Translations under genes and position numbers: made by a program
Notes under the pieces: model-generated
Seen by the model: the letters and a program-made list of their open reading frames with translations, nothing else
Databases searched by the model: none
Told to the model about the DNA's origin: nothing
DNA from: an uncultured Bacteroidales bacterium
GTDB lineage: Bacteria; Bacteroidota; Bacteroidia; Bacteroidales; UBA3663
Assembly: GCA_902776605.1 (NCBI GenBank)
Contig: CACYQQ010000009.1
Span: 1 to 47,829 of the forward strand
Reading direction: 5' to 3'
Length of the DNA: 47,829 nucleotides
Shown: positions 2,209-30,548 of the stretch, piece after piece
How positions within the stretch are numbered: the stretch's first letter is position 1
Layout: each line of letters begins with the position of its first letter

Positions 2209-3597
2209 ATGAAGACTTTTAAATTAGGCGGTGTTCATCCCGCTGCAAATAAACTCTCCGCAGGAGCTCCTATACAGGTGGCCGCCGTCCCTGACATGGT
2301 GGCTATTCCTATGGCGCAGAACCTCGGCGCTCCATCGAAGGCCATTGTCGCTAAGGGTGACAAGGTCAAGGTCGGTACCGTCATTGGTGAACCAGGCGGA
2401 TTCCTTTCTTCTTTTGTACACTCGTCTGTTTCGGGCACCGTTGATAAGGTAGATGTCGTCGAGGATGCTACCGGCAAGAAAGTGCCTGCCGTATTCATTA
2501 AGGTAGAAGGCGACGAGTGGGAAGAGACTATCGACCGCTCTAAAGATATTGTCCGCGACATCAAGTTGGACAAACAGCAGATTATTGATAAGGTGAAGGA
2601 GATGGGCATCGTCGGTATGGGTGGTGCTACCTTCCCAACTCAGGTCAAGTTGACCCCTCCTCCAACAGCCAAGCCTGAGTGCGTCATCATCAACGCCGTA
2701 GAGTGTGAGCCATATCTCACCTCCGACCACTCGTTGATGTTGGCTCATGCCGAGGAGATCTGCATCGGTGTGCAGATTCTGGAAAAGGCGATGGGCGTGA
2801 AGAAGGCATACATCGGCATCGAGGCCAACAAGCCAGATGCTATCGAATTGATGCGTAAGACCGCTGCCAACGGTTTCCCAGAGATTGAGATTGTACCTCT
2901 CCAGCTCAAGTACCCACAGGGTGGTGAGAAGCAGCTCATCAACGCCGTCATCGGCAAGGAGGTTCCTTCGGGCGGTCTGCCAATCGCCACAGGTGCCCTT
3001 GTGCAGAACGTCGGTACCGCCTTCGCTGTCTATGAGGCCGTACAGAAGAACAAACCACTCATCGAGCGTATTGTCACCGTGACCGGCAAGAGCGTTGCCA
3101 AGCCAGGTAACTTCCTGACCCGTATCGGTGTACCGGTTGCTAACCTCATTGAGGCTGTCGGCGGTGTGCCAGAGGATACCGGCAAGATCATTTCCGGTGG
3201 TCCAATGATGGGTAAGGCCATGCCCGATACCAACAGCTATGTCGTGAAGGGTTGTTCGGGCATTCTCATCATGAAGAATGCCGAGGCACGTCGCAAGGAG
3301 GCAGGACCATGTATCCGTTGCGGCAAGTGCGTACATGCTTGTCCTATGGGCTTGCAGCCAAACTTCCTGGCACGTTACAGCGAACTCAACCTGCTTGACG
3401 AGGCCGAGGAGGAGCGCATCTACGATTGTATCGAGTGCGGTTCCTGCCAGTTCTCTTGTCCAGCCAACCGTCCTTTGCTCGATTGGATCCGTCAGGGCAA
3501 ACCAAAGGTGATGGGCATCCTGCGTCAGCGTGCAGCCGAGGCCAAGGCTAAGGCCGATGCCGAGAAGGCTGCCAAAGAAGCCGCTGCGGCTAAGTAA
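2209..3597 (+). CDS. rnfC: Rnf electron-transport complex subunit C
   Basis: MKTFKLGGVHP N-terminus, GMGGATFPT NADH/FMN-binding block, and two 4Fe-4S motifs (CIRCGKCVHACP, CIECGSCQFSCP). I prefer ATG 2209 to the ORF-track start 2170, which overlaps the rnfB stop and adds a non-conserved 13 aa. Confidence 0.92.
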   Translation: MKTFKLGGVHPAANKLSAGAPIQVAAVPDMVAIPMAQNLGAPSKAIVAKGDKVKVGTVIGEPGGFLSSFVHSSVSGTVDKVDVVEDATGKKVPAVFIKVEGDEWEETIDRSKDIVRDIKLDKQQIIDKVKEMGIVGMGGATFPTQVKLTPPPTAKPECVIINAVECEPYLTSDHSLMLAHAEEICIGVQILEKAMGVKKAYIGIEANKPDAIELMRKTAANGFPEIEIVPLQLKYPQGGEKQLINAVIGKEVPSGGLPIATGALVQNVGTAFAVYEAVQKNKPLIERIVTVTGKSVAKPGNFLTRIGVPVANLIEAVGGVPEDTGKIISGGPMMGKAMPDTNSYVVKGCSGILIMKNAEARRKEAGPCIRCGKCVHACPMGLQPNFLARYSELNLLDEAEEERIYDCIECGSCQFSCPANRPLLDWIRQGKPKVMGILRQRAAEAKAKADAEKAAKEAAAAK

Positions 3598-3639
3598 TTT
3601 GTAATTCGTAATTTGTAATTTATTTATACAAAGAATATT

Positions 3640-4590
3640 ATGTTAAACGTATCTTTGTCGCCTCATGTGCACAGTGGCAACAGCACACAGAAGTGTATGC
3701 TTCAGGTGCTTATTGCCCTCTGTCCAGCACTGCTCTGGTCCTTCTACCAGTTCGGCTCGGGTGCAATCATCCTGACCTTGGCCTCGGTGGCATTCTGCCT
3801 CTTGTTTGAGTTCCTGATTACAAGGTTCCTGCTCCATACGCCTTCTACCCTCGGCGATCTTTCTGCCGTGGTGACAGGTGTGCTGTTGGCCTTCAACGTT
3901 CCATCCAACTTGCCTGTATGGGTCATTGCCATCGGTGCTTTGGTCGCTATCGGCGTAGGTAAGATGGTTTATGGTGGATTGGGTGCCAACATCTTCAATC
4001 CTGCTTTGGTAGGTCGTGTGTTCCTCCTCGTGGCCTATCCTGTACAGATGACCACTTGGCCATCGCAAGCAGGTTATGCAGATGTCGAGACGGGTGCCAC
4101 ACCACTCTCTATCATCAAGCGCATCGTCAATGGCGAGAGCACATTGGCAGCTCCCGACTTCATGGATAGCTTGCTCGGTGTAACGGGCGGTTCTTTGGGT
4201 GAGGTTTCGGCCCTGGCATTGCTCTTGGGCGGCATCTATCTCCTTGTCCGCAAGACCATTACCTGGCATATTCCAGTCAGCGTGCTGCTCAGTGCCTTCG
4301 TCTTCGGCTTCCTCTTCTACGGTTGCAACATGACCTTGGCTCTTGACCAGTTGGTATGTGGCGGTATGATGTTGGGTGCCATCTACATGGCTACCGACTA
4401 TGTCTCTTCGCCAATGAACAGTCGTGGTCAGTTGCTCTATGGTTGCTGCATCGGTTTCCTGACTATCGTCATCCGTCGTTATGGCGCTTATCCTGAGGGT
4501 ATGTCATTTGCCATTCTCATCATGAATGCATTCACTCCTCTCATTAATAAATATATCAAACCACAGCGTTTCGGCGTTGTAAAAAAGTAA
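3640..4590 (+). CDS. rnfD: Rnf electron-transport complex subunit D (polytopic membrane, FMN-attachment family)
   Basis: 316 aa and highly hydrophobic. NqrB/RnfD-type blocks are GANIFNPALVGRVFLL and YMATDYVSSP. Position in operon fits. Confidence 0.92.
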   Translation: MLNVSLSPHVHSGNSTQKCMLQVLIALCPALLWSFYQFGSGAIILTLASVAFCLLFEFLITRFLLHTPSTLGDLSAVVTGVLLAFNVPSNLPVWVIAIGALVAIGVGKMVYGGLGANIFNPALVGRVFLLVAYPVQMTTWPSQAGYADVETGATPLSIIKRIVNGESTLAAPDFMDSLLGVTGGSLGEVSALALLLGGIYLLVRKTITWHIPVSVLLSAFVFGFLFYGCNMTLALDQLVCGGMMLGAIYMATDYVSSPMNSRGQLLYGCCIGFLTIVIRRYGAYPEGMSFAILIMNAFTPLINKYIKPQRFGVVKK

Positions 4591-4596
4591 TCACCT

Positions 4597-5292
4597 ATGG
4601 CTAAGTTAGAAAATTCTACAAAAAATATGGTCCTGTCTTTGACAGCGATTACGCTTGTTGTGGGTGCATTGCTCGGCTTGGTCAATGCCGTTACCAAAGA
4701 GCCTATTGAACAGGCGAAAGCCAACAAGCAGTCAGCGGCCATCTCGGCTGTTGTTCCTGGAGAGGGTAACGAAATCAGCAAGGGAGAGATTGTTACTTCT
4801 TCCAACGGTGAAGAGGCAGTCGTCTTCTCGGTCACCAACAATGGTCAGTTGATTGGTAAGGCCATCCGCGCCGTGAGCAAGAATGGCTTTGGTGGTAAGA
4901 TTACCGTCATGTTCGGTTTCGATGCTGAGGGTAACATCCTGGGTTACAGCGTCCTGGATTGCAGCAACGAGACCCCAGGCCTTGGCGCCAAGATGCCTGA
5001 CTGGTTCCAGAAGGGCCAGAAGGGTGACGTCATCGGCAAGAACCCCGGTAAGAACAATATGCACGTCAGCAAGGATGGTGGCGAAGTGGATGCCATCACC
5101 GCAGCGACCATTTCATCGCGTGCCTTCCTCGACGCTTTGGCACAGGCCTATGGCGTATTCAGTGGAAGTGAGGTAGTAACAACCTCTGCCTCGCAGCAGG
5201 CTGTTGCAGAGGAGGTTGCAGCTCCTTGTGAAGAGGCTTGCGACGGCTGTCCTAAGGCCGAAAAGGAGGAGAGTTGTCACAACGAAAACTAA
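4597..5292 (+). CDS. rnfG: Rnf electron-transport complex subunit G (FMN-binding domain)
   Basis: Single N-terminal TM, ETPGLG block, and DAITAATISSRA flavinylation-type motif. Carries an unusual Cys-rich acidic C-terminal tail (CEEACDGCPKAEKEESC). Confidence 0.9.
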   Translation: MAKLENSTKNMVLSLTAITLVVGALLGLVNAVTKEPIEQAKANKQSAAISAVVPGEGNEISKGEIVTSSNGEEAVVFSVTNNGQLIGKAIRAVSKNGFGGKITVMFGFDAEGNILGYSVLDCSNETPGLGAKMPDWFQKGQKGDVIGKNPGKNNMHVSKDGGEVDAITAATISSRAFLDALAQAYGVFSGSEVVTTSASQQAVAEEVAAPCEEACDGCPKAEKEESCHNEN

Positions 5293-5316
5293 TCATAAAT
5301 GTAAGGAGATTTTATT

Positions 5317-5904
5317 ATGTCAAAACTTGGTATTATTATCAACGGTCTGATTAAGGAGAACCCTACATTTGTGTTGCTCCTTGGTATGTGCCCAACGTTG
5401 GGTACCACCTCTTCTGCCATCAACGGCATGAGCATGGGTTTGGCCACCATGGCGGTGCTCATCTGCTCTAACTTTGTTATTTCTTGTCTCAAGAACCTCA
5501 TCCCTGACAAGGTGCATATTCCTTGCTACATTGTAGTCATTGCAGGTTTCGTGACTGTCGTGCAGTTGTTGCTCAAGGCATACGCTCCTGCCGTTGACGA
5601 GAAGTTGGGTCTGTTCATTCCGCTCATCGTTGTGAACTGTATCGTGCTGGGTCGAGCAGAGTCTTTTGCTGCTAAGAACAGTCCAGTCGATTCGGCTTGT
5701 GATGGTATCGGTATCGGTCTTGGCTTCACCTGTGCATTGACTTTGATTGGTCTTTGCCGTGAGTTGCTGGGTGCAGGCACTGTTTTCGGTGCTTCTATCT
5801 ACCCCGAGCAGTTTGGTGCTTTGACCTTCGTCCTCGCCCCAGGTGCATTCATCACCCTCGGTTTCTTGGTTGCCATCTTCAACAAGTTAACTGCCAAAAA
5901 GTAA
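5317..5904 (+). CDS. rnfE: Rnf electron-transport complex subunit E
   Basis: 195 aa hydrophobic protein. NPTFVLLLGMCPTLGTTSSA and PLIVVNCIVLGRAE are RnfE/NqrD blocks. Confidence 0.92.
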   Translation: MSKLGIIINGLIKENPTFVLLLGMCPTLGTTSSAINGMSMGLATMAVLICSNFVISCLKNLIPDKVHIPCYIVVIAGFVTVVQLLLKAYAPAVDEKLGLFIPLIVVNCIVLGRAESFAAKNSPVDSACDGIGIGLGFTCALTLIGLCRELLGAGTVFGASIYPEQFGALTFVLAPGAFITLGFLVAIFNKLTAKK

Positions 5905-5906
5905 GA

Positions 5907-6064
5907 ATGAGGTTATGAGGTTGTAAGGTCGCTTCGCTTGTAAGGTCGCTTCGCTTGTAAGGTCGTTGCACTTGTAAGGTCGTTGCACTTGTAAGGTTAT
6001 TTTGCGAAACTTCCCTCAAAACCTTAAAACCTTAAAACCTCAAAACCTCAAAACCTAATAACCT
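5907..6064. repeat. Paired tandem-repeat arrays in the rnfE-rnfA spacer (8-mer x2, 17-mer x5, 8-mer x6)
   Basis: ATGAGGTT x2 (5907-5922). TTGTAAGGTCGCTTCGC x2, TTGTAAGGTCGTTGCAC x2 and one diverged copy (5921-6005). CAAAACCT/TAAAACCT/AATAACCT x6 (6017-6064). The left array contains TAAGGTT and the right array its complement AACCTTA. Confidence 0.9.
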
Positions 6065-6078
6065 AAAATAAGAAAGTT

Positions 6079-6678
6079 ATGAGTTACATTATAATGATTA
6101 TCACTGCGATATTTGTCAACAATATCGTATTGGCACAGTTCTTGGGTATCTGTCCATTCTTGGGAGTTTCTAAGAAGGTCGGTACCGCTGGTTGGATGGG
6201 CTTGGCAGTTCTCTTTGTCATGTTGATTGCTACCTTGGTGACCTATCCTATCTACTACGGACTTTTGGCACCTTATGGATTAGGCTACATGCAGACCATC
6301 ATCTACATCCTGGTCATTGCTGCTTTGGTTCAGATGGTCGAGATCATTCTCAAGAAGACCATGCCAGCGCTCTATAGCGCCCTCGGCGTGTTCCTTCCAT
6401 TGATTACCACCAACTGTACGATCCTTGGTGTTGCCATCAACGTCATCAACTTCGAGTACAACTTGGCTGAATCCATTGTCTATGCCATCGCTACAGCCCT
6501 TGGTTTTACCTTGGCCATGATCCTGTTTGCCGGTATCCGCGAGCAGTTGGCTATCACCGACAAACCAAAAGCCATGGAGGGTACACCAATCGCCCTCATT
6601 ACCGCTGGCCTCTTGGCCATGGCATTCATGGGCTTCTCGGGTGTTGATAAGGGTTTGAGTGCAGCTTTAGGACTCTAA
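6079..6678 (+). CDS. rnfA: Rnf electron-transport complex subunit A
   Basis: 199 aa hydrophobic protein. NNIVLAQFLGICPFLGVS and LPLITTNCTILGVA are RnfA/NqrE blocks. Last gene of the operon. Confidence 0.92.
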   Translation: MSYIIMIITAIFVNNIVLAQFLGICPFLGVSKKVGTAGWMGLAVLFVMLIATLVTYPIYYGLLAPYGLGYMQTIIYILVIAALVQMVEIILKKTMPALYSALGVFLPLITTNCTILGVAINVINFEYNLAESIVYAIATALGFTLAMILFAGIREQLAITDKPKAMEGTPIALITAGLLAMAFMGFSGVDKGLSAALGL

Positions 6679-10820: not shown

Positions 10821-10990
10821 GGAGTTAATCGTAACTTAGAAGGAGTTAATGGGAGTTAACCGGAGTTATCGCTTCGCTTAGGGAGTTAACAGACGTTACT
10901 ACAGAGGGGCGGAACTTGGAGTAACAGAAGTTATCGCTTTGCTTAGGGAGTTAACGGACGTTACTGCTGAGGGGCGGAACTTGGAGTTAT
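10821..10990 (+). repeat. GGAGTTAAC-word repeats: one copy of a dispersed ~50-bp element plus a 65/61-bp tandem duplication
   Basis: 10842-10890 reads GGAGTTAATGGGAGTTAACCGGAGTTATCGCTTCGCTTAGGGAGTTAAC. Unit GTTATCGCTT(C/T)GCTTAGGGAGTTAAC(A/G)GACGTTACT..GAGGGGCGGAACTTGGAGT occurs at 10865-10929 and 10930-10990. Confidence 0.9.
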
Positions 10991-14508: not shown

Positions 14509-14952
14509 ATCATTATTTTGTTATTCCGAACACTTTCTGCCCAGAAAAAACGCGAAAACAGAAAAATGTCAATTTATAATGGGGGACAAAAGTCCAATGC
14601 ACCACTTCCTTCAGTCCTCTGTCCTCATCCTGATAGTATCCTGCGGTAATGGTCGGGTAACTATCGGGTAACGATTGGGTATCGATTGGCGTTCGATTGA
14701 ATCGACTGAAATTAATCACCGAATTTAGACTAAATATAGACCAAAATTTGACCCAATCAAAACCGCGAGGTGGGGGCAAGGTATTCAGCGGATTCTATCA
14801 AAAGTTCAATAAGAATGAGGGCAGAAGTAAAAAAAGGCGATAAATTTGCGAAAATTCTCAAAAAGGTGTGAAATTGGAGCTCTAAAAATCTCAAAAAGGT
14901 GCGAGAAGGTCAAAAAAACGACACAAAATGGCTATTTGTTCAGATTCTTCGC

Positions 14953-15443
14953 GTTGCTCTGAATGACATACGACTGAAAAGAAAATAATCCTTACTGTCC
15001 AGTTGAAATAATAAAAAAGCAAGCCTGAAGGGCTGGCAAGAATACAGGCAGGTGGTAAGCGAAGCGCGACCCCTGCTATAAGGTATATCACAGAGAAAGC
15101 CCAGAAGGGGCGGCAGAATCCTCCAGCAATGCTCCACCTTTCCCTCTTTCTGCCACCCCTTCGGGGTTTTGGATGCTCTCGTTCCTCAACGCCGGGGTTG
15201 TACCCCTGCCTGTGGTCTACCACCCCTTCGGGGTTTTGGATGCTCTCGTTCCTCGTTCCTCAACGCCGGGGTTGTACCCCTGCCTGTGGTCTACCACCCC
15301 TTCGGGGTTTTGGATGCTCTCGTTCCTCAACACAGGGGTTGTACCCCTGCCTGTGTTCTGCCACCCCTTTGGGGTTTTGGATGCTCTCGTTCCTCAACGC
15401 AGGGGTTGTACCCCTGCCTGTGGTCTACCACCCCTTTGGGGTT
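14953..15443. repeat. Structured non-coding element, copy A: ~197-bp conserved module (14953-15149) plus 4.3 tandem 67-bp hairpin units (15150-15443)
   Basis: Near-identical to 17683-17969. Units start at 15150, 15217 (74 bp, with an internal CGTTCCT duplication), 15291, 15358 and 15425 (partial). Confidence 0.9.
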
Positions 15444-15465
15444 AAGCTATCACGTGAAAAAAAGC

Positions 15466-15510
15466 TCCAGATTGTCGAACTGATGGACAGATAATCTGGA
15501 GTTTTCTTTT
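15466..15510. terminator. A-tract/hairpin/T-tract terminator (bidirectional by sequence) closing repeat copy A
   Basis: GAAAAAAAG-CTCCAGATT ... AATCTGGAG-TTTTCTTTT. Confidence 0.55.
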
Positions 15511-15582
15511 GTTCCCTGCATTTTTTTGGGGCACAAAAGTCAAAAAATCGGGTATAAATTTGGCAAATTGAAAAAGAAGCCG

Positions 15583-15590
15583 TACCTTTG
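15583..15590 (+). promoter_or_regulatory. -7 promoter box (TACCTTTG); a second match TAAATTTG lies at 15555-15562
   Basis: TAnnTTTG matches upstream of the orphan gene starting at 15739. Confidence 0.4.
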
Positions 15591-15738
15591 CAGCAGAATG
15601 AAAAACAAGTGTATGTCGAAATAGCCTAAATCGCTAAGCAGCAAGTGTAACAATTTGGGTTCTCCGGAACCTGGATCACCTTTCGAAAGAGAGGTGCGTG
15701 ATGTTCTTTTATCTATTGTTACACAAAACTGCATTAGT

Positions 15739-16380
15739 ATGAGAAAGCGATTGAAGCATTTTCATGTGTGTTCCTGTTCGCCCGAAAGGGGAGTGACGTA
15801 TTTGGATGCCCGTCTGTTGAAGGACATCGTAAATCGCGGAATTCATCCTATCCGCTGCGCTTCCACGTGTGGTCACAAGGCATTGCGAGGCCTGCTGTTG
15901 GGCGACCTTTGTGCCGAAACGAATCACCTAGGGTGGGCACTCAGAATCTGGAAGTTTACGCTCAAACAGATTCATGAAAAGGACTATGACGACTGGATTG
16001 ACGTCCACTGGTTCAACACCAAGTATGTCAGCTTTCAGGATGTGATTCCCGATGGTTGGTGCGAAATTATCGGACGGCGCATGGATGAGGCTGAACGGAA
16101 GTTGGGCATCTCGAATGCCCGAGGCAGAGACAGCTGGGAGTACCGCGCAGGTGACGGTTGGTATAATTCATTTTTTGCAGAGAAATTCGACTTCAATTGG
16201 GATGAATGGCGCGAGGAGTATCTCGCAATGCGCAATGAATTGCTGGCCAGACAGAACACAGAGCGGATATTCCGCGACGGACAGGCCAACACCGTCCACC
16301 CTTCCGACTATTTCGACTATTGGAACGACTACGATCCCTCCAAAGAGGATCTGTACTTCAAAATCGACGACTGGGATTGA
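15739..16380 (+). CDS. Hypothetical cytoplasmic protein, Cys/His-rich N-terminus and Trp/Asp-rich C-terminus (213 aa)
   Basis: First ATG of ORF 15655..16380, whose listed start is TTG. Begins MRKRLKHFHVCSCSPERG. No signal peptide or TM. C-terminal half is DYDDWIDVHWFN ... FDFNWDEWREEY ... DYFDYWNDYDPSKEDLYFKIDDWD. No family recognised. Confidence 0.6.
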   Translation: MRKRLKHFHVCSCSPERGVTYLDARLLKDIVNRGIHPIRCASTCGHKALRGLLLGDLCAETNHLGWALRIWKFTLKQIHEKDYDDWIDVHWFNTKYVSFQDVIPDGWCEIIGRRMDEAERKLGISNARGRDSWEYRAGDGWYNSFFAEKFDFNWDEWREEYLAMRNELLARQNTERIFRDGQANTVHPSDYFDYWNDYDPSKEDLYFKIDDWD

Positions 16381-16588
16381 TTTCCCAGTCGTCGGTTTTA
16401 TTATGAATGATCCTTCCTGACCACATTTGTAGAACCACAAAAATAGCATTTTTTAAGCATATCAATGATGATTTCTGCAAATATGTGGATTTCAATGGAT
16501 TACAAGGATTTCATCCCTCAAAATGTCTATTAGGCCGCTTTTCGTAAAAAAGTTAGAACAAAACGCGAATACCGCAAAACTAATGTCG

Positions 16589-16596
16589 TATCTTTG
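16589..16596 (+). promoter_or_regulatory. -7 promoter box (TATCTTTG) with no protein gene downstream
   Basis: Perfect TATCTTTG in the convergent spacer. It points at the 3' end of the minus-strand gene 16746..17555. Confidence 0.4.
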
Positions 16597-16745
16597 CACC
16601 ACAATCTTTGAAATGCTGATAGAAGGAAGTCTTCGTGACGAAGAGGATTGATTGCGTGCACCTTAAATCAGGAAAGGGGATATGAAACAAACAGAGGCTC
16701 ACGACGCGAATCGCGAACCTCCGTTATATGGCGATGAGTTTTTTG

Positions 16746-17555
16746 TTAGTAGAAGTGAGGGTAGGATTGCTTCTTTTCTTTTCGGACGTATCGCCCGATT
16801 CGGCGCAGTTTGTAGTATCCGTCTTGTCGTTCCGTGCTGTAGATGTACTTGCCGCAGACCAGATGTTTTATCTTATCGTTCATCGGAACTACGTTGTTGT
16901 TCTTGTTGAATACGCCTGCCTTGACTTTGATGAAAAGCGTGTCGCCCTGGATGTCGGTCTGCTTGACGCTTACCTTCAGGGCCGAATTGAAGAAGTCGGA
17001 AATGACAAGCTTTCCGTTATCGTTGTGCAGGACAAGGGGTTGTCTTTCGCGCCTTTCAGTCACGACGGGTAAGAAGCATAGTTTCTCGTCCACATTGACG
17101 TCGATGGATAGTAAGGTGTAGACGTCATTGATGCCAATCTCGGGTTCAATGAGGACGGGAGTGGTCTTATATATCATGCCAATAGGTAGGTCTGTCCAGT
17201 CGGGCAGAATGGTCTGTCCCTTTTCGTCGCAGGGAAAGAGGGAGCGGAAAGAGGCCAGATAGATGTCGCCGCGCTTCAGGCAGGAGACTTCCGGGTCGAG
17301 GTCGGTGGCAATCTTGAACACTTCGTCGCCCATGGTGGCATAGATGATGTAGAAGTCGTTGCACCATCCGATCTCCTGGATTTGGATGAACCCCGTCCTT
17401 TTCCTGAAATTCAGGTACTTGTCGGCGGAATAAATGTCAGGGTCCACGATAGATGATTCTTCGGCAGAAGTGAGGTCTGTCTCGTCATTCTGATTGTCGG
17501 CAAAAAGTGCGCTCGTGCTCAACCATAGGAAGCAAAGCCATAATAAATGTCTCAT
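16746..17555 (-). CDS. Hypothetical secreted protein (269 aa)
   Basis: I start at ATG 17555 (MRHLLWLCFLWLSTSALFADNQND, a signal peptide). The 105 codons the ORF track adds upstream lie in repeat copy B and are frame-inconsistent with copy A. No family recognised. Confidence 0.65.
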   Translation of the reverse strand: MRHLLWLCFLWLSTSALFADNQNDETDLTSAEESSIVDPDIYSADKYLNFRKRTGFIQIQEIGWCNDFYIIYATMGDEVFKIATDLDPEVSCLKRGDIYLASFRSLFPCDEKGQTILPDWTDLPIGMIYKTTPVLIEPEIGINDVYTLLSIDVNVDEKLCFLPVVTERRERQPLVLHNDNGKLVISDFFNSALKVSVKQTDIQGDTLFIKVKAGVFNKNNNVVPMNDKIKHLVCGKYIYSTERQDGYYKLRRIGRYVRKEKKQSYPHFY

Positions 17556-17682
17556 ATTGGATAAAGAGTGTAAGTAATGAAGTGTGGCAAGAAGGATGTC
17601 CGCTTCTCGCTGAGTGAATAACGAATGAGGTTGAGAATTATTGTTGAAGAGGGGTGGAAAAGGTTTTGTAAGGACCCATCTT

Positions 17683-17969
17683 GTTGCCCTGAATGACATA
17701 CGACTGAAAAAAAAAATCCTTACTGTCCGGTTGAAATGATAAAAAAACAAGCCTGAAGGGCTGGCAAGAATACAGGCAGGTGGTAAGCGAAGCGCGACCC
17801 CTGCTATAAGGTATATATCACAGAGAAAGCCCCAGAGAATGGGCGGCAGAATCCTCCAGCAATGCTCCACCTTTCCCTCTTTCTGCCACCCCTTCGGGGT
17901 TTTGGATGCTCTCGTTCCTCAACGCAGGGGTTTTACCCCTGCCTGTGGTCTGCCAGCCCTTCGGGCTTT
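17683..17969. repeat. Structured non-coding element, copy B: conserved module (17683-17882) plus 1.3 hairpin units (17883-17969)
   Basis: Aligns with 14953-15236 apart from small indels. The partial second unit carries AGCCC-TTC-GGGCT in place of ACCCC-TTC-GGGGT. Confidence 0.9.
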
Positions 17970-17993
17970 ATTGGGACAACCGGATGGTAAGAA

Positions 17994-18031
17994 AAAATCC
18001 TGCGCAAAACAATTCTGCGCAGGATTTTGTG
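17994..18031. terminator. Bidirectional intrinsic terminator (probably the ssrA terminator; also closes repeat copy B)
   Basis: AAAATCCTGCGCA-aaacaattc-TGCGCAGGATTTT. The minus-strand reading is followed by TTTTTTC. Confidence 0.65.
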
Positions 18032-18093
18032 GTAGTTGGGTTAATAACTAATAACTATTAACTATTAACTGCGACGAGCAGAGCTCGTCGCTT

Positions 18094-18491
18094 GTGGAGC
18101 TGGAGGGGTTCGAACCCTCGTCCAAACGGGGAACATCTGTGCTTTCTACATGCTTATTCTGGCCTTCATTGTCGGGAGGGACCAAGACCCAGACCACCAA
18201 GTCACTCCGTATCCTCTAAGGTTTCATTTGTGGCACGAGGCTGCCGACAAACTATTCCCGATTTATCTGCACCACCGGTTCCTTGGTCTCGGGATTACGA
18301 CCTTGGGGTGATGTCTTGTCTCCACTACCTTGAGCGGAGATTAAGCCAGTAATCTACTGTACTTCGATTAGGCAGCAAGAGCGTAGTTATTCTCGCCAAT
18401 TATATTTTGCCACCGTGGATTATAGAGATAGATGACATCTCTCTGCATGCTTACACAAAGGCTCATCTCGCTGTCAAAGCCAGTCAGCCCC
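18094..18491 (-). ncRNA. ssrA: tmRNA (transfer-messenger RNA)
   Basis: Minus-strand 5' end is GGGGCTGACTGGCTTTGACAGCGAG. Tag reading frame GGCGAGAATAACTACGCTCTTGCTGCCTAA encodes GENNYALAA-stop (18397..18368). 3' end is GGACGAGGGTTCGAACCCCTCCAGCTCCAC (T-arm plus acceptor). CCA is only partly encoded. A GCGACGAGC-aga-GCTCGTCGC hairpin lies at 18071-18091 just downstream. Confidence 0.95.
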
Positions 18492-18684: not shown

Positions 18685-19917
18685 ATGAACAATAATAAAA
18701 GAGTAGTTATTACAGGTATGGGCATCTGGTCCTGCCTTGGTACCGATCTCGAAACCGTTAAGGATTCTCTCTATAATGGCAAGTCTGGTATTGTGTTTGA
18801 TCAAGCGCGTAAGGATTTAGGTTTCCGCTCTGCGTTGACCTCGTACGTCGAAAAGCCGGATTTGAAGAAACTCATACCTCGTAACCAACGTCAGTTCATG
18901 CCTGAGGAGGCGCAATATGCCTATATGTCCACATTGCAGGCTCTCCAGCAGGCAGGCATCGACCAGGACTTCCTGGATGCCCATGAGGTTGGATTGTTGT
19001 TTGGCAATGACTCGGTGGCTCAGGCTACCTATCAAGCTGTCTCCAAGATATATGAATATAAGGATACTGCTGCCTGTGGTTCAGGAAGTATCTTCCAGTC
19101 GATGAACTCGACCGTGACCATGAACCTCGCTACGCTGTTCCGCCTGCGTGGCATCAACTTGACCACTTCGGGCGCTTGTGCCTCGGGTAGTCACGCCCTC
19201 GGATTGGCCTGGTTGCTCATCAAGAATGGATTGCAGGATTGCATCGTAGCCGGTGGTGCACAGGAGGTTAACTTGGAGTGCGTCGGTTCGTTCGATGGCA
19301 TTCAGGCGTTCTCGACCCGCGAGGATGAACCAACCAAGGCCAGCCGTCCATTCGACCGTGACCGCGATGGTCTCGTCCCAGGCGGTGGTGCTGCCACCCT
19401 CATCATCGAGAGTCTGGATCATGCTTTGGCCCGTGGCGCCAAGCCTATTGCCGAAATCATCGGTTGGGGCTTCTCGGGCAACGGCGACCATATCTCTACG
19501 CCTAACGTAGCAGGTCCACAACGTTCTTTGGAATTGGCTATTGAGCACGCTGGTGTAGATATTCACGAGATTGGCTACGTCAATGCACATGCCACTTCGA
19601 CCCACGCCGGAGATGGTCGTGAGGCCATGGCGATTGCCAACGTCTTTGGCGACTACAAGGTGCCCGTCACTTCGACCAAGGGTCAGACTGGTCACGAGAT
19701 GTGGATGGCAGGTGCCAGCGAGGCTATCTACAGCATCCTGATGATGAAGAACAACTTCATCGCCGGTTCGTTGAACTTCGAGAACCCCGACGAGGAGACC
19801 GCTTGCATCAACGTCATCGCCAAGACCCAGGAGGCACACTTCGACATGTTCCTGAGCAACTCCTTCGGCTTCGGCGGTACCAACTCGACGCTGATTGTCA
19901 AGGACTACAAGGAATGA
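18685..19917 (+). CDS. Beta-ketoacyl-ACP synthase (KAS I/II type, FabB/FabF-like)
   Basis: RVVITGMGIWSCLG N-terminus. Active-site Cys is in TTSGACASGSHALG, and the His-His pair in NAHATSTHAGD and GQTGHEMWMAGA. C-terminal SNSFGFGGTNSTLIV. Confidence 0.9.
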   Translation: MNNNKRVVITGMGIWSCLGTDLETVKDSLYNGKSGIVFDQARKDLGFRSALTSYVEKPDLKKLIPRNQRQFMPEEAQYAYMSTLQALQQAGIDQDFLDAHEVGLLFGNDSVAQATYQAVSKIYEYKDTAACGSGSIFQSMNSTVTMNLATLFRLRGINLTTSGACASGSHALGLAWLLIKNGLQDCIVAGGAQEVNLECVGSFDGIQAFSTREDEPTKASRPFDRDRDGLVPGGGAATLIIESLDHALARGAKPIAEIIGWGFSGNGDHISTPNVAGPQRSLELAIEHAGVDIHEIGYVNAHATSTHAGDGREAMAIANVFGDYKVPVTSTKGQTGHEMWMAGASEAIYSILMMKNNFIAGSLNFENPDEETACINVIAKTQEAHFDMFLSNSFGFGGTNSTLIVKDYKE

Positions 19918-21340: not shown

Positions 21341-21967
21341 ATGACCAATCTCTGTATTGCCATATATCACTACTTCCGCCGGCACAGGGCTATCTATGGA
21401 ACACTGATGACGTTGTTGTTTGTGTTCTTTGGCTATTTTGCAGCCCAGATTCATCTGGAGGAAGATATCTCGAAATTGCTGCCATCGTCGAAGAACGAGG
21501 ACGGCAGCACCAAACTGGCGTTTGCCGACTTGCGCATCAAGGACAAGACCTTCCTGGTCTTTGAGGCCAGTCCCGAGATGAGTGCCGACGACCGTCGTGA
21601 CTCGCTCATTGCCGTGAGCGACCGGTTTGTGGCCGAGTTGGAAACGACTCTGGACAGCTTGCGTCAACGCGGCGACACTTTGTTGGAGGATGTCTTTGCA
21701 CAATTCAACATGCAGGACTTGGCCTTCGACGCCATCGACTATGTGGAGTCGCAGTTGCCTTGCTATATTGACACTTCGTTCTACGCTTCGTTCGATACCC
21801 TCTTCACTCCGCAGCACATGGAGTGGCAGATGGCACAGAACCGTCAGCAGGGAATGAGTCCGATTGGACAGATGTTTCCGGAGTTGATTGCCATGGACCC
21901 GTTGGGCATCCGCAACGTCATAGGCAGTCAGTTGAAGGAGATGGCTGGCGGCATGGGCGGCCAATAG
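21341..21967 (+). CDS. MMPL/RND-superfamily exporter, N-terminal fragment (208 aa) ending at an in-frame TAG
   Basis: N-terminal TM (LMTLLFVFFGYFAAQIH) then EEDISKLLP and a soluble loop. Same reading frame as 21977..23797. Stop TAG at 21965-21967. Confidence 0.7.
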   Translation: MTNLCIAIYHYFRRHRAIYGTLMTLLFVFFGYFAAQIHLEEDISKLLPSSKNEDGSTKLAFADLRIKDKTFLVFEASPEMSADDRRDSLIAVSDRFVAELETTLDSLRQRGDTLLEDVFAQFNMQDLAFDAIDYVESQLPCYIDTSFYASFDTLFTPQHMEWQMAQNRQQGMSPIGQMFPELIAMDPLGIRNVIGSQLKEMAGGMGGQ

Positions 21968-21976
21968 CTCAACAAC

Positions 21977-23797
21977 ATGCAACAGAAGTATTGGGGTTCG
22001 TCGGGTGACGTGCCACAAACCTCGCCCAAGGGTACTCAGGTCAAGGTTTGTTATCATGGCAGTCCGGCGCGAGGCGCTTACAACAGTTGGCAGACCAAGG
22101 CCGACCTCCGCAACACGATTGTGGGGTCGTTGATTGTGGTTTTGATATTCATTTTCATCTGTTTTCGCAACTGGAACACCATTCCGCTGTTGTTGTTGCC
22201 TGTTGCCTTCGGTACGTTGTTTGGCCTGGCCATGATGTACTTCATCAAGGGTCAGTTCTCGCTCCTGGCGTTGGGCATCGGTGCTATCGTGCTGGGAGTG
22301 GCATTGAGTTATGTGTTGCACGTCATCACGCACTATAAATATGTGAGCGATCCGGTCCAGGTGTTGCGCGACCAGGTGACACCCGTCTTCCTGGGGTGTC
22401 TGACCACCATCGGTTCCTTTATGGGCTTGATTTTCATCAACACAGAGTTGTTGCAGGACTTCGGACTCTTTGCCTCGTTTGCCATTGTCGGCACGACGGC
22501 ATTCAGCCTTATCTTCCTGCCCCAGTTCTTCAATCCCGTCAAGAACAAGCGCAATCGTCGCGCCTTTGCCATCATCGACCGCGTCAACGCCTATCCGTTT
22601 GACCGCAAGAAGCCGTTGCTGATTGTCATCGGTCTCATCGTGGCAGTCTGTGTGGCATTCTACTTCAAGGATGGTGTTGATTTTGATGCAGATATGCGCA
22701 ATATCGGCTACTTCTCGGAGAACATCACCTACTCGGAGGAGTTGGTTCGCGCCAAGACCCACACGGGCGACAAGCAACAATATTTTGCCTCGTCGGGAGC
22801 GACGATGGAGGAGGCGTTAGACAACTTCGCTTTGTTGTCGGCCAAGTTGGACACCTTGCAACAGCAGGGATTGGTCAAGAGCTATACACCTACCAGTACC
22901 CTCTTCGTACCGCAAAGTGTTCAGCAGCAGCGTATTGACGCCTGGCACAACTTCTGGACCGAAGAGCGCCTCAACCAGGCGCGAGAACTCATCCGACGCA
23001 GTGCGCCGAAGCAGGATATCGTACCGTCGTTCTTTGAGCCTTTCTTTGATGCCGCTACGCAGGACTACAGTCCTTCGCCTCTTTATGAGCAGGGCATCGT
23101 CCCTTATGGTCTGCAATCGACCATGATGGAGCAGTCGGCCGATGGCAAGTATCTCTGTTTCACCTCGGTACGCTGCACCAACGACTCGGTGCGTAGCGAC
23201 ACTACGGCCTATCAGCAGATCTGCCGTGCCATCAGTACGATGCCCAACATGATGGTGCTCGACACCTATTTCTATACGCAGGACACGTTGCTCGAACTCA
23301 ATGACGACTTCAATGTCCTCCAGTGGGTGAGCATGGCATTTGTCTTCCTGGTGTTGTTGGTGTCGTTCCATTTCAAGTTGAGTCACACCTTGTTGGGCTT
23401 CCTGCCTATCTTGGCAAGTTGGGTCATCGTGTTGGGTGCCATGAACATCTTCGACCGCGAGTTCAACCTCATCAACATCATCATATCGACCTTCATCTTC
23501 GGTATTGGCGTCGATTATTCTATCTTCGTGATGAATGGTCTATTGGCCGGACAATCAGACACTTGCGCTGAGACCGACCGCGAGAAGCGCGACATCCAGT
23601 TGTTGTCGTACCACAAGACGGCCATCCTCTTCTCGGCAGTGGTACTCATTGTGACGGTGTCGTCGATGCTCTTTGCCCGCCACCCATCTATTACCAGTGT
23701 CGGCTTCGCCACATTGGTGGGTATGGTGAGTGCCGTGGTGTTGAGTTATGTGGTTCAACCCTTCCTGTTTAAGTTGTTGACTAGAAAGAAGAAATGA
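21977..23797 (+). CDS. MMPL/RND-superfamily exporter, C-terminal fragment (606 aa)
   Basis: Two 5-6-helix bundles (IVGSLIVVLIFIFICF ... LGIGAIVLGVALSYVLHV, and WVSMAFVFLVLLVSF ... IISTFIFGIGVDYSIFVMNG) separated by a soluble domain. Together with 21341..21967 it makes an 818-codon frame. Confidence 0.75.
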   Translation: MQQKYWGSSGDVPQTSPKGTQVKVCYHGSPARGAYNSWQTKADLRNTIVGSLIVVLIFIFICFRNWNTIPLLLLPVAFGTLFGLAMMYFIKGQFSLLALGIGAIVLGVALSYVLHVITHYKYVSDPVQVLRDQVTPVFLGCLTTIGSFMGLIFINTELLQDFGLFASFAIVGTTAFSLIFLPQFFNPVKNKRNRRAFAIIDRVNAYPFDRKKPLLIVIGLIVAVCVAFYFKDGVDFDADMRNIGYFSENITYSEELVRAKTHTGDKQQYFASSGATMEEALDNFALLSAKLDTLQQQGLVKSYTPTSTLFVPQSVQQQRIDAWHNFWTEERLNQARELIRRSAPKQDIVPSFFEPFFDAATQDYSPSPLYEQGIVPYGLQSTMMEQSADGKYLCFTSVRCTNDSVRSDTTAYQQICRAISTMPNMMVLDTYFYTQDTLLELNDDFNVLQWVSMAFVFLVLLVSFHFKLSHTLLGFLPILASWVIVLGAMNIFDREFNLINIIISTFIFGIGVDYSIFVMNGLLAGQSDTCAETDREKRDIQLLSYHKTAILFSAVVLIVTVSSMLFARHPSITSVGFATLVGMVSAVVLSYVVQPFLFKLLTRKKK

Positions 23798-23905
23798 TCG
23801 GAGTAGTCGGAGTGATCGGAATAATCTGAGTAATCCGAAAACTCTGAGTAATCCGAGTACTCTGAATAATCGGAGTAATCCGAAAACTCCGAAAAATCGG
23901 ATAAA
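23798..23905. repeat. Twelve degenerate tandem 9-bp repeats, TC(C/G/T)GA(A/G)(A/T)A(A/C/G)
   Basis: TCGGAGTAG TCGGAGTGA TCGGAATAA TCTGAGTAA TCCGAAAAC TCTGAGTAA TCCGAGTAC TCTGAATAA TCGGAGTAA TCCGAAAAC TCCGAAAAA TCGGATAAA. Fills the spacer from the exporter stop up to 10 nt before the next ATG. Confidence 0.9.
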
Positions 23906-27943: not shown

Positions 27944-28780
27944 TTACATCTCCTTTCTTTGTTTGATTAAAGCAGATTGAGCTTCTGCATATATTTGTTT
28001 CAATATTTTTATCTCTTTTCCAGCTATATCACAGAATCCGTTTGCACGGAGCCAATTCATAGTTTCTTCTATAAAACTAAGGCATTGTTCAAAATCCGTA
28101 TGAAGTAATTGCAGTCGAGCAATTCGTGGATAGTTGGCAAAATATCGAGGGTTAAGAATGCTTGATTTTCTAAAGAAATCATAAGACTTTTCATATAAAT
28201 ATTGTTTCTCGTTGTCTCCTTCCTGTGATATTTTTAACAAATCCTCCAATTGTTGCAAATATACCAAGCCTAAATCATGATAAGCTTCATACATGTATCC
28301 ATCAATCTTTACACATTGTTCGAAACAAGATTTTGCCTCATCATACTTTTTATAAATATCAAGGTATAATCTGCCTTTGTGTAACCAAGCCAATGTATTA
28401 CTGCTATCACAATCGATGGCGATTTCAATATCTTTCAACGACTCATCATAATTGCCCAATTGACCTGAAATATAGCTTTTCAGTCTATAGGCTTCACTAT
28501 ATCTGGGATGTGCAGTCAGCACGTTGTTCACAATGAGCTGTGCATCTTGTATATTGTTAGATTGAAGCGCTTGAACGCCACTTAACAGAGACATTAAACC
28601 TTCTTGATCAATATCTCCTACAGTTTCAATTATCGTATTGTCATCTTTTAGAGTATATATATAGTTGAAACCTATAGCGCTTTTATTGAAATTCAACCAT
28701 TTCAAGGCCTCATCAATATTTTTAGCTCCCAGCAATCTTGAGTCACCTAACTTAAAAATATTGGTTGTTAAAGTTGCCAT
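27944..28780 (-). CDS. Tetratricopeptide-repeat (TPR) protein, 278 aa, cytoplasmic
   Basis: TPR-like 34-aa helical pairs (SEAYRLKSYISGQLGNYDESLKDIEIAIDCDSSN, TLAWLHKGRLYLDIYKKYDEAKSCFEQCVKID, YEAYHDLGLVYLQ). No signal peptide. A+T-rich codon usage unlike the neighbours. Confidence 0.75.
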   Translation of the reverse strand: MATLTTNIFKLGDSRLLGAKNIDEALKWLNFNKSAIGFNYIYTLKDDNTIIETVGDIDQEGLMSLLSGVQALQSNNIQDAQLIVNNVLTAHPRYSEAYRLKSYISGQLGNYDESLKDIEIAIDCDSSNTLAWLHKGRLYLDIYKKYDEAKSCFEQCVKIDGYMYEAYHDLGLVYLQQLEDLLKISQEGDNEKQYLYEKSYDFFRKSSILNPRYFANYPRIARLQLLHTDFEQCLSFIEETMNWLRANGFCDIAGKEIKILKQIYAEAQSALIKQRKEM

Positions 28781-28782
28781 AT

Positions 28783-29634
28783 TTATTTAATTTTGGAGAA
28801 TACATAATCTATACTACTAGTGTCAGTGTCACCAAACTTATTCTTTGTCCCTTTATTATGCTCCGTACGAATTGAGTCCGGTGAAATGTCTTTCATTTTG
28901 CAAGAAAAACAGTGTGCAACGGTATCCCAATCTTTCTTTCCGGGTTGAAGAGGCTTTAGAATCATCTTTATAAACAAAGATAATTGCTTCAATGTTCCAC
29001 ACCAATTAAAACGCTCAAAATGCTCATTTTTGCGTAGAGGGACATTGAACATATGAACAAAGTCGTACATTGCACTTGGGCCAGAGTCAATCAACATCCT
29101 TTCATTACACCAATAGTATATTTGACGTAACTGATCCTCATTAAATTTTGTGACCAAAATGGGCAAACAGTCTTCTGTCGCGCTCAGATATCCTCTATTA
29201 TTGATTTGTGACGAGAGTAAATCTAAACGCTCAAAGATAAAATCCGCAAACTTCATCCAATCGTTCCAATATACAGACATGTCTTTGCGCTCAAATACAT
29301 GAAACCTTGGCACATTCAATAAAGTATCAAATACACTCTTTAATGTGTATGTACTATTTGAGACATGAAAAGACTCCTCAATATCAGTCCAAGGTATCTC
29401 ATTGACGGTATTCCATCCAACTATACGAAGAATGATACAAAGTATAATGGGCATCTTATCTTGTGTGCCCTCAAACTCAAAATGTATTTCATTTTGATTA
29501 TCTGCATTATAAAAAAGACTCAAGAAATCTTCTGGCCTTGGTTTTGTTTCCGAATTAAGAAACTTGTAAGAGATAAGCCGAAAATAGATTTCGCGCAATT
29601 GGTCTTTTGTCCATGGGGTAGGTAGCTTGTTCAT
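28783..29634 (-). CDS. Hypothetical protein, 283 aa, with an internal two-fold domain duplication
   Basis: Repeat 1 is WTKDQLREIYFRL...EDFLSLF...FEFEGTQDKMPIILCIILRI...WTDIEESF. Repeat 2 is FNEDQLRQIYYWC...YDFVHMF...FERFNWCGTLKQLSLFIKMIL...WDTVAHCF. No motif I can assign. 2-nt gap to the TPR gene. Confidence 0.7.
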   Translation of the reverse strand: MNKLPTPWTKDQLREIYFRLISYKFLNSETKPRPEDFLSLFYNADNQNEIHFEFEGTQDKMPIILCIILRIVGWNTVNEIPWTDIEESFHVSNSTYTLKSVFDTLLNVPRFHVFERKDMSVYWNDWMKFADFIFERLDLLSSQINNRGYLSATEDCLPILVTKFNEDQLRQIYYWCNERMLIDSGPSAMYDFVHMFNVPLRKNEHFERFNWCGTLKQLSLFIKMILKPLQPGKKDWDTVAHCFSCKMKDISPDSIRTEHNKGTKNKFGDTDTSSIDYVFSKIK

Positions 29635-29653
29635 ATTTTTTTTATTTTGGGTG

Positions 29654-29661
29654 CAAAGATA
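29654..29661 (-). promoter_or_regulatory. -7 promoter box (TATCTTTG on minus strand) for the A+T-rich islet operon
   Basis: Plus strand reads CAAAGATA, 20 nt upstream of ATG 29634. Confidence 0.5.
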
Positions 29662-29816
29662 TAGTATTTTTAGGACATAATCTCCGAAAAAAGTTTCAAA
29701 AAAGTTTCAAACTTAAAAAAGTGATTTTTGTGCCAAAAATCTATGCCCCTCATCAATAAATATGTCTAATCAATCATAAATTTATCATTTCTTGCGCTCT
29801 TTTTCAAAATATTTAT

Positions 29817-29824
29817 TATCTTTG
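29817..29824 (+). promoter_or_regulatory. -7 promoter box (TATCTTTG)
   Basis: 47 nt upstream of ATG 29871. Confidence 0.5.
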
Positions 29825-29870
29825 CCGCGTAAACACAGTTTGAAAAATACTAAAACTCTTAAAAAATATC

Positions 29871-30548
29871 ATGCTTATGAAAAAGACTTTACTCCTTGCA
29901 GCCTTGGCATTGACCAGTATGGCTGCTGTGGCACAAGAGACATTTACCCGCGAGATGCCTTGTAAGAATGACTTTGGTCAGGTGATTGCCAACAAGATGG
30001 GCACCATCTGTCTGCCTTATGCAGCCGAGCCATCGGATTGCTCGGTATATAAACTGGTGTCGGCTTCGGCTCAGGAATGGGTGTTCCAGCAGGTGACCAG
30101 CATGGAGGCCAATACACCATACGTCTTCGTCGTCGATAACAACACTACGCTCGAAGCCTCCTTCACCAAGGTGGGCGAAGAGGTGGCTTGCCAGAATCCA
30201 GTAGCCGATGCAGCTGGTGTAGAGGGCGCTTTTGTTGGAACCTATCAGCGCAAGATGCTTCGTGGCCAGAAGATGTATTTCCTGTCGCACGACAAGATCA
30301 ACTTCAACAATGGACAGCCCATCGTCGCTACTCCTTATCGCGCCTATTTCTCGGCCGACGTGATGCCAGCCGGTGAAACTATCTCCGACAACCTGAAGTT
30401 GACTTTCCTCTCAGCCAACGATGAGGGTACGACTGCCATCGACGCTACTGCCCTGAAGGAGGAAGCTGAAACTGCAGTTGGCAGCCAGAACATCGGTTTG
30501 AAGCAGGGCCGTTACAACATCAACGGCAAGAAGGTCGTCGTGAAGTAA
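29871..30548 (+). CDS. Small secreted protein of unknown function with T9SS-like C-terminal tail
   Basis: Signal peptide MLMKKTLLLAALALTSMAAVAQE (alternative start at 29877). The C-terminus GTTAIDATAL...GLKQGRYNINGKKVVVK resembles the end of T9SS sorting domains. Confidence 0.6.
   Translation: MLMKKTLLLAALALTSMAAVAQETFTREMPCKNDFGQVIANKMGTICLPYAAEPSDCSVYKLVSASAQEWVFQQVTSMEANTPYVFVVDNNTTLEASFTKVGEEVACQNPVADAAGVEGAFVGTYQRKMLRGQKMYFLSHDKINFNNGQPIVATPYRAYFSADVMPAGETISDNLKLTFLSANDEGTTAIDATALKEEAETAVGSQNIGLKQGRYNINGKKVVVK

Follow-up and report, generated by a model that had tools for sequence, protein, structure and literature searches.

A probable family of mosaic palindromic intergenic repeats in rumen Bacteroidales, with two copies beside ssrA

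Background

In BOX elements of Streptococcus pneumoniae, tandem B units in variable number stand between a module A and a module C, and the ends are complementary. Among Bacteroidales, BrickBuilt and MITEPgRS/MITE464 of Porphyromonas gingivalis are always intergenic and carry spacerless tandem direct repeats between a leader and a tail, with small inverted repeats at the ends (PMC4596501). Other intergenic repeats are imperfect GC-rich hairpins, as in the repetitive extragenic palindromic (REP) sequences, the bacterial interspersed mosaic elements (BIMEs) and the hairpin-forming REP doublets (REPINs) (PMC3733652). Here we describe an element present in two copies, referred to as E1 and E2, in a stretch of 47,829 nt from an uncultured Bacteroidales bacterium (assembly GCA_902776605.1, contig CACYQQ010000009.1, positions 1 to 47,829), which is called the window. 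In its workings the element resembles all of these systems; by sequence it appears to be a member of none of them, and it falls below the thresholds of Rfam.

E1 and E2 are probably copies of a non-autonomous, selfish-type mosaic palindromic intergenic repeat family, similar to MITEs (miniature inverted-repeat transposable elements), BIMEs or BOX elements, which is found in a narrow group of rumen Bacteroidales. All coordinates and strands are positions in the window, on the plus strand unless stated, and "L" numbers are labels of contigs matched in the metagenome and genome-collection searches.

Results

Two direct copies of the element in the window

The original prediction, made from the letters alone, had described two direct copies of a structured module of about 200 nt adjoining ssrA, and both were recovered at the predicted positions. 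A direct-repeat search returned the repeat families D1-D3 with 93-96% identity, and in a global alignment (14953-15236 against 17683-17969) E1 and E2 were identical in 272 of 289 columns, with 7 gap columns. The shared strings that had been listed were found in both copies, and the core strings had zero matches in the shuffled window sequence. The module had been drawn too short, as the homology reaches further right, through the first 67-nt unit of the array that follows. E2 also has a right-end inverted repeat (Table 1); that of E1 is absent, being deleted relative to the L072 and L074 alleles. The indels between the copies are of 2, 2 and 3 nt, so that open reading frames (ORFs) running across them change frame and are not genes, as had been foreseen for those at 14940-15137 (minus) and for the first 105 codons of 16746-17870 (minus). 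The homologues of such ORFs were other element copies only.

It is hardly conceivable that the duplication is an assembly artefact, which had been named as one way in which the prediction could fail. Assemblers do struggle with the region, as the contigs of two other samples break inside E1 (~15045-15192), but these same contigs hold E2 intact, with unique flanks, between gene 2 and the transfer-messenger RNA (tmRNA). The contig of a fourth sample (L076) spans the whole of E1 with the same four full units and terminal half-unit, and the copies differ from each other at 17 alignment columns. Both copies are thus held by independent assemblies.

Table 1 Features of the two copies and of the DNA between and beside them (positions in the window)
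Feature	Position	Strand	Remarks
S module, left flank of E1	14941..14990	+	begins cagattcttcgcgttgctctgaatgacatacgactgaaaag; 3' part repeated left of E2
Element copy E1	14953..15444	+	leader, 4 full 67-nt units (one of 74 nt), terminal half-unit
Left terminal inverted repeat of E1	14991..15005	+	CTTACTGTCCAGTTG
REP-type imperfect hairpin of E1	15048..15076	+	GCAGGTGG-TAAGCGAAGCGCGA-CCCCTGC
18-nt tip of the E1 REP-type hairpin	15054..15071	+	GGTAAGCGAAGCGCGACC, includes the GCGAAGC mini-hairpin
Central hairpin of E1	15112..15154	+	GGCAGAA...TTCTGCC; stem kept in all copies
Minisatellite of E1	15153..15444	+	unit: CCCCTTCGGGG hairpin, linker, CAGGGGTTGTACCCCTG hairpin, CCTGTGGTCT
Terminator-like hairpin after E1, bidirectional	15457..15509	.	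A-tract, 20-nt arms, T-tract; conserved in L072, L074, L076
Gene 1	15739..16380	+	213 aa, ORFan; in sibling strain L072 without gene 2
Gene 2	16746..17555	-	269 aa, signal-peptide-like N-terminus, ORFan
Element copy E2	17683..17991	+	partial S module, leader, 1 full unit, terminal hairpin, right inverted repeat
Left terminal inverted repeat of E2	17719..17733	+	CTTACTGTCCGGTTG
REP-type hairpin of E2	17776..17804	+	tip at 17782-17799
Central hairpin of E2	17845..17887	+	GGCAGAA...TTCTGCC
Unit and terminal hairpin of E2	17886..17968	+	hairpin CCAGCCCTTCGGGCTT is the complement of left-arm AAGCCTGAAGGGCTGG
Right terminal inverted repeat of E2	17977..17991	+	CAACCGGATGGTAAG; 13/15 complementary to the left repeat
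Terminator hairpin of the tmRNA	17992..18033	.	A-tract AAAAAATC at 17992-17999
tmRNA (ssrA)	18092..18491	-	tag GENNYALAA; only Rfam match in the window

Palindrome and minisatellite

A complete copy is an imperfect, non-coding palindrome of 260-570 bp. Its 15-nt terminal inverted repeats (CTTACTGTCCGGTTG / CAACCGGAyrGTAAG) are prolonged into complementary arms of ~70 nt, and in element A of L072 the two repeats (CTTACTGTCCGGTTG / CAACCGGACAGTAAG) are complementary at 15/15 positions. E2 folds into a single long imperfect hairpin, with the left arm AAGCCTGAAGGGCTGGCAAGAATACAGGCAGG pairing with the right-hand CCTGCCTGTGGTCTGCCAGCCCTTCGGGCTT, and the profile of the element matched its own reverse strand (E = 2.9e-20). 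Between loci, the left arm and the REP-type hairpin are nearly invariant and the centre is variable; the loop of the central hairpin has 29 nt in the window and 13 nt in L073. For an alignment of seven single-unit versions of the element (A5), RNAalifold predicted a single long hairpin with 79 pairs (covariation term, -0.26 kcal/mol), in which 97.8% of the cells were paired, against 38-52% when the partners were slid by 1-3 columns. The palindrome is real and conserved. Selection on RNA pairing is not demonstrable in A5 because the copies are too similar: 58 of the 79 pairs never vary and just one changed on both sides in a compensatory manner.

The 67-nt hairpin units that had been noticed after each copy were located at 15153, 15220, 15294, 15361 and 15428 in E1 (spacings of 67, 74, 67 and 67) and at 17886 and 17953 in E2. 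Each is made of a CCCC-TTCG-GGGG hairpin, a 20-nt linker and a CAGGGG-TTGTA-CCCCTG hairpin, and the 3' flank of every unit repeats right-arm sequence. Arrays across the family hold 1 to 6 full units. When 27 full units were compared, the stems were invariant and the loops and the linker variable, with L073 mixing two unit variants.

Relatives at other intergenic loci

Searching metagenomes for further copies, a check that had been proposed together with the original prediction, did recover related copies elsewhere. A scan with the hairpin tip led to true relatives in L053 and L059, and others were traced through spurious plus-strand ORFs that span the unit arrays. The family is present at five or more unrelated intergenic loci, here denoted A to E.

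Locus A, the spacer between the 754-aa gene and gene 1, has five structural alleles, sibling strains included, in the window (E1), L076, L072, L074 and L078. The window and L076 have one copy with its right end deleted. In L072 two copies lie ~100 nt apart, with 3 and 5 full units and both with right ends; in L074 the element is almost wholly deleted (junction ggcaaggta/ggatgctctc); and in L078 one copy with 1 unit is followed by entirely different DNA. Locus B, the ssrA spacer, is occupied by E2 in the window type only, and E2 is absent from ssrA in both the sibling strain L072 and the related species L069. Locus C lies between a convergent gene and a gene ending in ...KKLLVK; there is one copy here in L053 and in L079, and there are two in L059. 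Locus D, after a DUF4957-family gene, holds 6 units in L073. At locus E, beside a Fer4 gene, L077 has one copy and L075 has one copy plus a duplicated right half. Truncated and half copies exist (L074, L075), and the placement relative to neighbouring genes is convergent, divergent or tandem.

The flanks of the copies are mosaic as well. Positions 14941-14975, to the left of E1, have a homologue that stands on the right side of the element in L075 and L077, and a 65-nt module left of copy B in L072 was found again left of the L077 copy, so that flanking modules are common to several loci with their positions shuffled. A BIME-like mosaic repeat, one of the readings offered by the original prediction, is supported by these observations: a palindromic module mosaic at five or more loci, with variable units and shuffled flanks. 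Features typical of MITEs were found too, namely small size (<~600 bp), no coding capacity, terminal inverted repeats and dispersal with presence/absence differences between strains.

Most of the other copies are on contigs of <2 kb, and assemblies break inside the repeat. No match was obtained when E2 was compared by blastn with plasmids and phages, and two scans of viral contigs returned 0 matches. The array-derived spurious ORFs formed 17 clusters among 1.84 billion representative proteins, some of them being more distant arrays with a PCLxSxTPSGF-type translation. It had been supposed that the copies might turn out to belong to an already catalogued REP family with hundreds of copies; the family is uncatalogued and looks rare.

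The genes between the copies and ssrA

Genes 1 and 2 had zero matches against Pfam, NCBIfam and PADLOC. A protein-database search with the long ORF that fuses the second module to gene 2 returned gene 2 homologues only; gene 2 has a single homologue, with 75% identity, in the related species L069. The L069 homologue lies ~210 nt from the tmRNA, with no element, no gene 1 and a different gene next to it. In L072, gene 1 is present, a 127-aa membrane-protein-like gene stands in place of gene 2, and no element is found at ssrA. The tmRNA tag of the window, GENNYALAA, is typical of Bacteroidales; this tag, the TAnnTTTG promoter boxes and the sample names of the matching contigs point to a rumen Bacteroidales as the host.

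Since the two genes are found apart and without the repeats in L069 and L072, they are not a unit carried between repeats, and the mobile cassette with the 2.2 kb between the copies, as originally proposed, has to be given up. Related strains, in which sites with one copy and no cassette had been expected, do lack the copy at ssrA (L072, L069), but there genes 1 and 2 do not travel together. For the same reasons it is very improbable that a mobile two-gene cassette or an island targeted to ssrA has the copies as its recombination sites (attL/attR or attC-like), although direct repeats bracket 2.2 kb of ORFan genes of slightly lower G+C beside a classic integration site. L069 carries at 327-345 an 18-nt duplicate of the tmRNA 3' end (AACCCCTCCAGCTCCACA), ~35 nt after the tmRNA, which looks like the att scar of an ssrA-targeted island and would mean that islands do target this ssrA. 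However, the repeats of the window do not overlap the tmRNA, no second copy of whose 3' end was found in the window; gene 1 of L072 has one or two elements on its left only, next to a different right-hand gene; and the element is present at four other loci without the cassette. No integrase, transposase, RAYT (REP-associated tyrosine transposase), Y1 transposase or recombinase was detected in the window or in the fetched flanks, and no full-length insertion sequence with the terminal repeats of the element was seen there. Of what marks an integron cassette or an ssrA island, neither a nearby recombinase, nor att-type repeats, nor co-travelling cargo was thus found.

The core of E2 is flanked on both sides by AAAAAATC (17711-17718 and 17992-17999, 8/8 matches). 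We downgraded this repeat as a target-site duplication, since its left copy lies within a flank that is also conserved in the E1 alleles at locus A; the right copy coincides with the tmRNA terminator's A-tract, which reads AAAATAAAATCC in L072. At other element copies the flank repeats matched in 4-6 of 8 positions, and all flanks are A-rich.

As a separate observation, a Bacteroidetes -7 box TATCTTTG (16589-16596) is followed by a 75-codon ORF (16682-16909) antisense over the 3' end of gene 2.

Transcription signals and strand preference

An element that folds so well could also be a multi-copy gene for a large structured plus-strand non-coding RNA, in which the 67-nt double hairpins would serve to bind or sponge a protein, with the dose tuned by the number of units. 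The folds are very stable (z of -6.2 and -5.3 for the two strands of E1, -8.6 and -7.5 for E2), stems are invariant where loops vary, G-U pairs are conserved on the plus strand, and the A5 consensus fold is better on that strand than on the minus strand (-103 vs -89 kcal/mol), with 5 of 7 copies essentially as stable or more stable on plus. The terminator after E1 closes no protein gene, and a Bacteroidetes-type -7 box (TAAATTTG, 14841-14848) stands ~105 nt upstream of E1. This box (TAnnTTTG) is informative here because it also precedes gene 1, the 754-aa gene, the gene at 18685 and the tmRNA; a simple sigma-70 and terminator scan was uninformative for the host organism.

In addition, the units show a sub-threshold likeness to Acido-Lenti-1 (Rfam RF01687), with five unit matches of 22.4-27.7 bits against a gathering score of 37, so that they are not members. 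The full 46-nt model was aligned, with a hairpin, a 12-nt linker containing CU..U.UGCC and a CCUUCGG hairpin in common; unlike the 67-nt units, Acido-Lenti-1 is not described as a tandem array.

We nevertheless consider the RNA gene unlikely. The single compensatory pair of A5 speaks against it, as do the truncated and half copies and the varying placement among neighbouring genes. In single copies the fold of the minus strand is almost as good, no -7 box was found upstream of E2, and no plus-strand terminator follows the element in L053 and L073. When the element was compared with Rfam on either strand, by gathering and E-value thresholds, no family reached its gathering score, which agrees with the original remark that it resembles no named RNA family. 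The plus-strand preference of the predicted folds could reflect a preferred single strand, be it RNA or the top strand of DNA that HUH enzymes use.

A-tract/hairpin/T-tract terminators do stand after each copy as had been described, but they are not part of the repeat family; other copies have no plus-strand terminator. The loop of the terminator-like hairpin after E1 (15474-15494, GTCGAACTGATGGACAGATAA) resembles the right inverted repeat of the element; it is maybe an older remnant, because it is also found in L072, where copy B keeps its own right end.

The tip of the REP-type hairpin in other phyla

A genome-collection scan with the 20-mer GGTGGTAAGCGAAGCGCGAC found the same sequence in metagenome-assembled genomes (MAGs) of Verrucomicrobiota, Pyrinomonadaceae and Planctomycetota and zero copies in Bacteroidales. 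At seven of these loci the tip caps a different stem (GCGGTG...CACCGC), and six of the seven lie within an intergenic repeat of cloverleaf-like form. Around the 18-mer GGTAAGCGAAGCGCGACC, at least 4 further flanking pairs were present in 25 of 42 distinct metagenome contexts, against a mean of 8 and a maximum of 17 in a control with re-paired flanks; ~15 of the 42 were apparent chance matches in coding DNA, as expected for an 18-mer. The stems that it caps carry either a GTAG tag (cGTAGGATGgg...ccCATC, GTAGGGTGgg...ccCACC) or a CGTC tag (CGTCATTCCGgg...ccCGGAATCC, CGTCATCCCGgg...ccCGGGAC), the latter often with an inverted partner nearby, and they correspond to the two super-families of REPs in Di Nocera et al. 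(PMC3733652). L030 holds at 6180-6400 (minus) a ~220-bp MITE with two inverted hairpins, CCGTAGG-tip-CCTGCGG, and the 18-nt tip in both orientations; its terminal repeats ACGTGAGTTCGATATAAA are those listed for MITE239 of P. gingivalis (PMC4596501, Table 2). The families with the tip are hence the GTAG-REPs, the CGTC-REPs, the cloverleaf-like repeat of Acidobacteriota and Verrucomicrobiota, an IS5-type MITE and the Bacteroidales element.

Tentatively, and with more doubt than confidence, the 18-nt tip may be read as a portable, functionally selected cap that is common to unrelated repeat families. Such a cap could perhaps be recognised across phyla by one machinery, either an HUH/RAYT-like enzyme or a host single-strand-DNA factor. 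Alternatively, it may be selected because the GCGAAGC mini-hairpin, a DNA hairpin with a Tm of 76.5 °C (PMC13037366), nucleates hairpin extrusion. As the search was by exact match, some of the tip identity may come from picking matching variants out of a very large pool of GCGAAGC-tipped REPs.

The tip also raises the question of a true REP/REPIN system, in which the GCGAAGC-tipped hairpin would be the unit recognised by a RAYT encoded elsewhere in the genome and the rest of the element would be hitch-hiking. The identity of the tip with that of GTAG- and CGTC-tagged REP hairpins and the two arms, which form a REPIN-like doublet, are in line with this, and in L053 and L059 a GTAG directly adjoins the stem on the minus strand. 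On the other hand, most copies, those of the window included, have ATAG at this place, the tag is on the opposite strand compared with the tip orientation of the classic GTAG matches, zero RAYT genes were seen, the family appears rare rather than present in hundreds of copies, and the conserved unit has ~270 nt, not 20-40 nt. We regard such a system as quite improbable, even more so than the RNA gene.

The common intergenic repeat of the Acidobacteriota and Verrucomicrobiota MAGs (L001, L002, L005, L006, L007 and L010) has ~100-130 nt and can be drawn as a four-way junction of GGAGTGC, GGTG-tip-CACC, GCTTTGG..CCAAAGC, GCCG..CGGC and GCACTCC; its loci had no match to Rfam at threshold. By eye, the hairpin and this cloverleaf were also compared with hammerhead, K-turn and tRNA-like folds, and no consensus fitted. 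Two readings of the element's own sequence were dropped as well: an IS608-type one (TTAC target) of the CTTAC end, as the conserved element continues past this end, and an IS66-type one (GTAAGCG end) of the tip, which was positionally wrong. Compared with the ends of ISPg3/MITE239, the terminal repeats showed a weak likeness, with a GTTCGAT core in the L053-type left end only.

Other features of the window and its relatives

Upstream of the promoter of the 754-aa thioredoxin-like gene, positions 14645-14699 hold about four tandem copies of the 11-nt motif GGGTAwCGATT, which could be a regulator binding array; it is conserved in L072, L074 and L076, with an inverted copy in L078 at ~640-690. 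In L072, a segment between the DUF2809 gene and the 754-aa gene (2923-6298) has a YoeB toxin/antitoxin pair, two ORFans and a 56-aa ORF, and is absent from the window.

Further along the window, an MMPL-family gene of an aryl-polyene-like cluster (21341-23797) is interrupted by an in-frame TAG at 21965-21967, after which its sequence differs from that of the intact 855-aa gene on contig L011 of the same species; a pseudogene, a difference between strains or an error of assembly may lie behind this. Probably acquired DNA is a block at 28000-30000 with 34% G+C against ~50% elsewhere, in which a TPR protein (27944-28780) and an ORFan (28783-29634) are encoded, both on the minus strand. Other intergenic tandem repeats, at 5921-5997 (17 nt x 4.5) and 10852-10987 (65 nt x 2.1), and a 9/18/27-nt periodic ATCGGAGTA array at 23797-23901 are unrelated to the element.

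Discussion

The copies have dispersed, their units have expanded and contracted, and they have undergone tandem duplication, loss of ends, deletion and replacement of the DNA on their right. Through such rearrangements, sibling strains have come to carry unequal numbers of the element and different neighbouring genes. We take these events to be the history of a non-autonomous repeat family, and several observations weigh against doing so. Neither a transposase, nor a RAYT, nor an integrase was found in the window or the fetched flanks as a mobilising enzyme; convincing target-site duplications were not seen, the 8-bp repeat around E2 being as likely microhomology or chance, because its left copy is conserved at the locus A flank. 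The limits of the mobile unit are not fixed, as flanking modules are common to several loci, and the 17 ORF clusters indicate a family that is rare and narrow. Finally, the terminator that ends no protein gene and the better plus-strand consensus fold fit a transcribed RNA too.

On this reading, the unit number of the family would change by replication slippage or unequal exchange, and recombination from copy to copy would produce deletions and swaps. E2 was probably gained recently in the spacer that separates gene 2 from the tmRNA terminator, and the AAAAAATC microhomology was perhaps the point of joining. Dispersal would need an enzyme acting in trans, possibly an HUH/Y1 (RAYT-like) one working on single-stranded hairpins, which is suggested because of the REP-type hairpin, or else a DDE transposase recognising the inverted repeats. 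The copies probably promote gene turnover beside ssrA as a hot spot of recombination, and their hairpins, if transcribed, could block read-through or exonucleases.

Such a repeat explains the assembly breaks beside ssrA, the wrongly drawn ORFs and the gene-content differences between sibling strains there. The identical hairpin tip on unrelated stems across phyla is the more interesting lead. Should the cap prove portable, many "species-specific" intergenic repeats would join one mechanistic superfamily, and if the tip reflects a shared mechanism of recognition or extrusion, the long-open question of how REP-like repeats spread would become more testable.

Compared by description, BOX elements are alike in that the whole folds into a long stem-loop that is intergenic and non-coding and breaks assemblies. 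They differ in phylum, in sequence and in the length of the unit (45 nt for boxB), and we know of no REP-type hairpin described in them. With REP, BIME and REPIN sequences (PMC3733652) the element shares an imperfect GC-rich hairpin with the same tip as GTAG- and CGTC-tagged REPs, a pair of inverted arms able to form a larger hairpin, and a mosaic with other repeat modules; its conserved unit is ~10 times longer, its apparent abundance is low, its tag is degenerate (ATAG) and on the opposite strand, and no RAYT accompanies it in the window or the fetched flanks.

Also among the closest known systems are BrickBuilt and MITEPgRS (PMC4596501), which share with the element a Bacteroidales host, intergenic positions, the order of leader, tandem repeats and tail with small inverted-repeat ends, a variable number of units (1 to 22.8 in BrickBuilt), many copies without one end, target duplications that are not clear-cut, and spurious ORFs called across copies. 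On the other hand, the unit of the element has 67 nt and two GC hairpins, against 23 or 41 nt in BrickBuilt and MITEPgRS, and the terminal repeats are unrelated (CTTACTGTCCGGTTG against the IS5-like GAGACCTTCGCA listed in Table 2 of PMC4596501). Unlike both, the element as a whole is one long palindrome, carries a REP-type hairpin and has no known parent insertion sequence (IS). As it has neither the 23-nt unit nor terminal repeats of the GAGACCTTCGCA type, it does not belong to BrickBuilt; the architecture is alike and the family is different. A second, unrelated palindromic mobile-type repeat with an internal minisatellite in Bacteroidales, after BrickBuilt/MITEPgRS, suggests that this design is recurrent.

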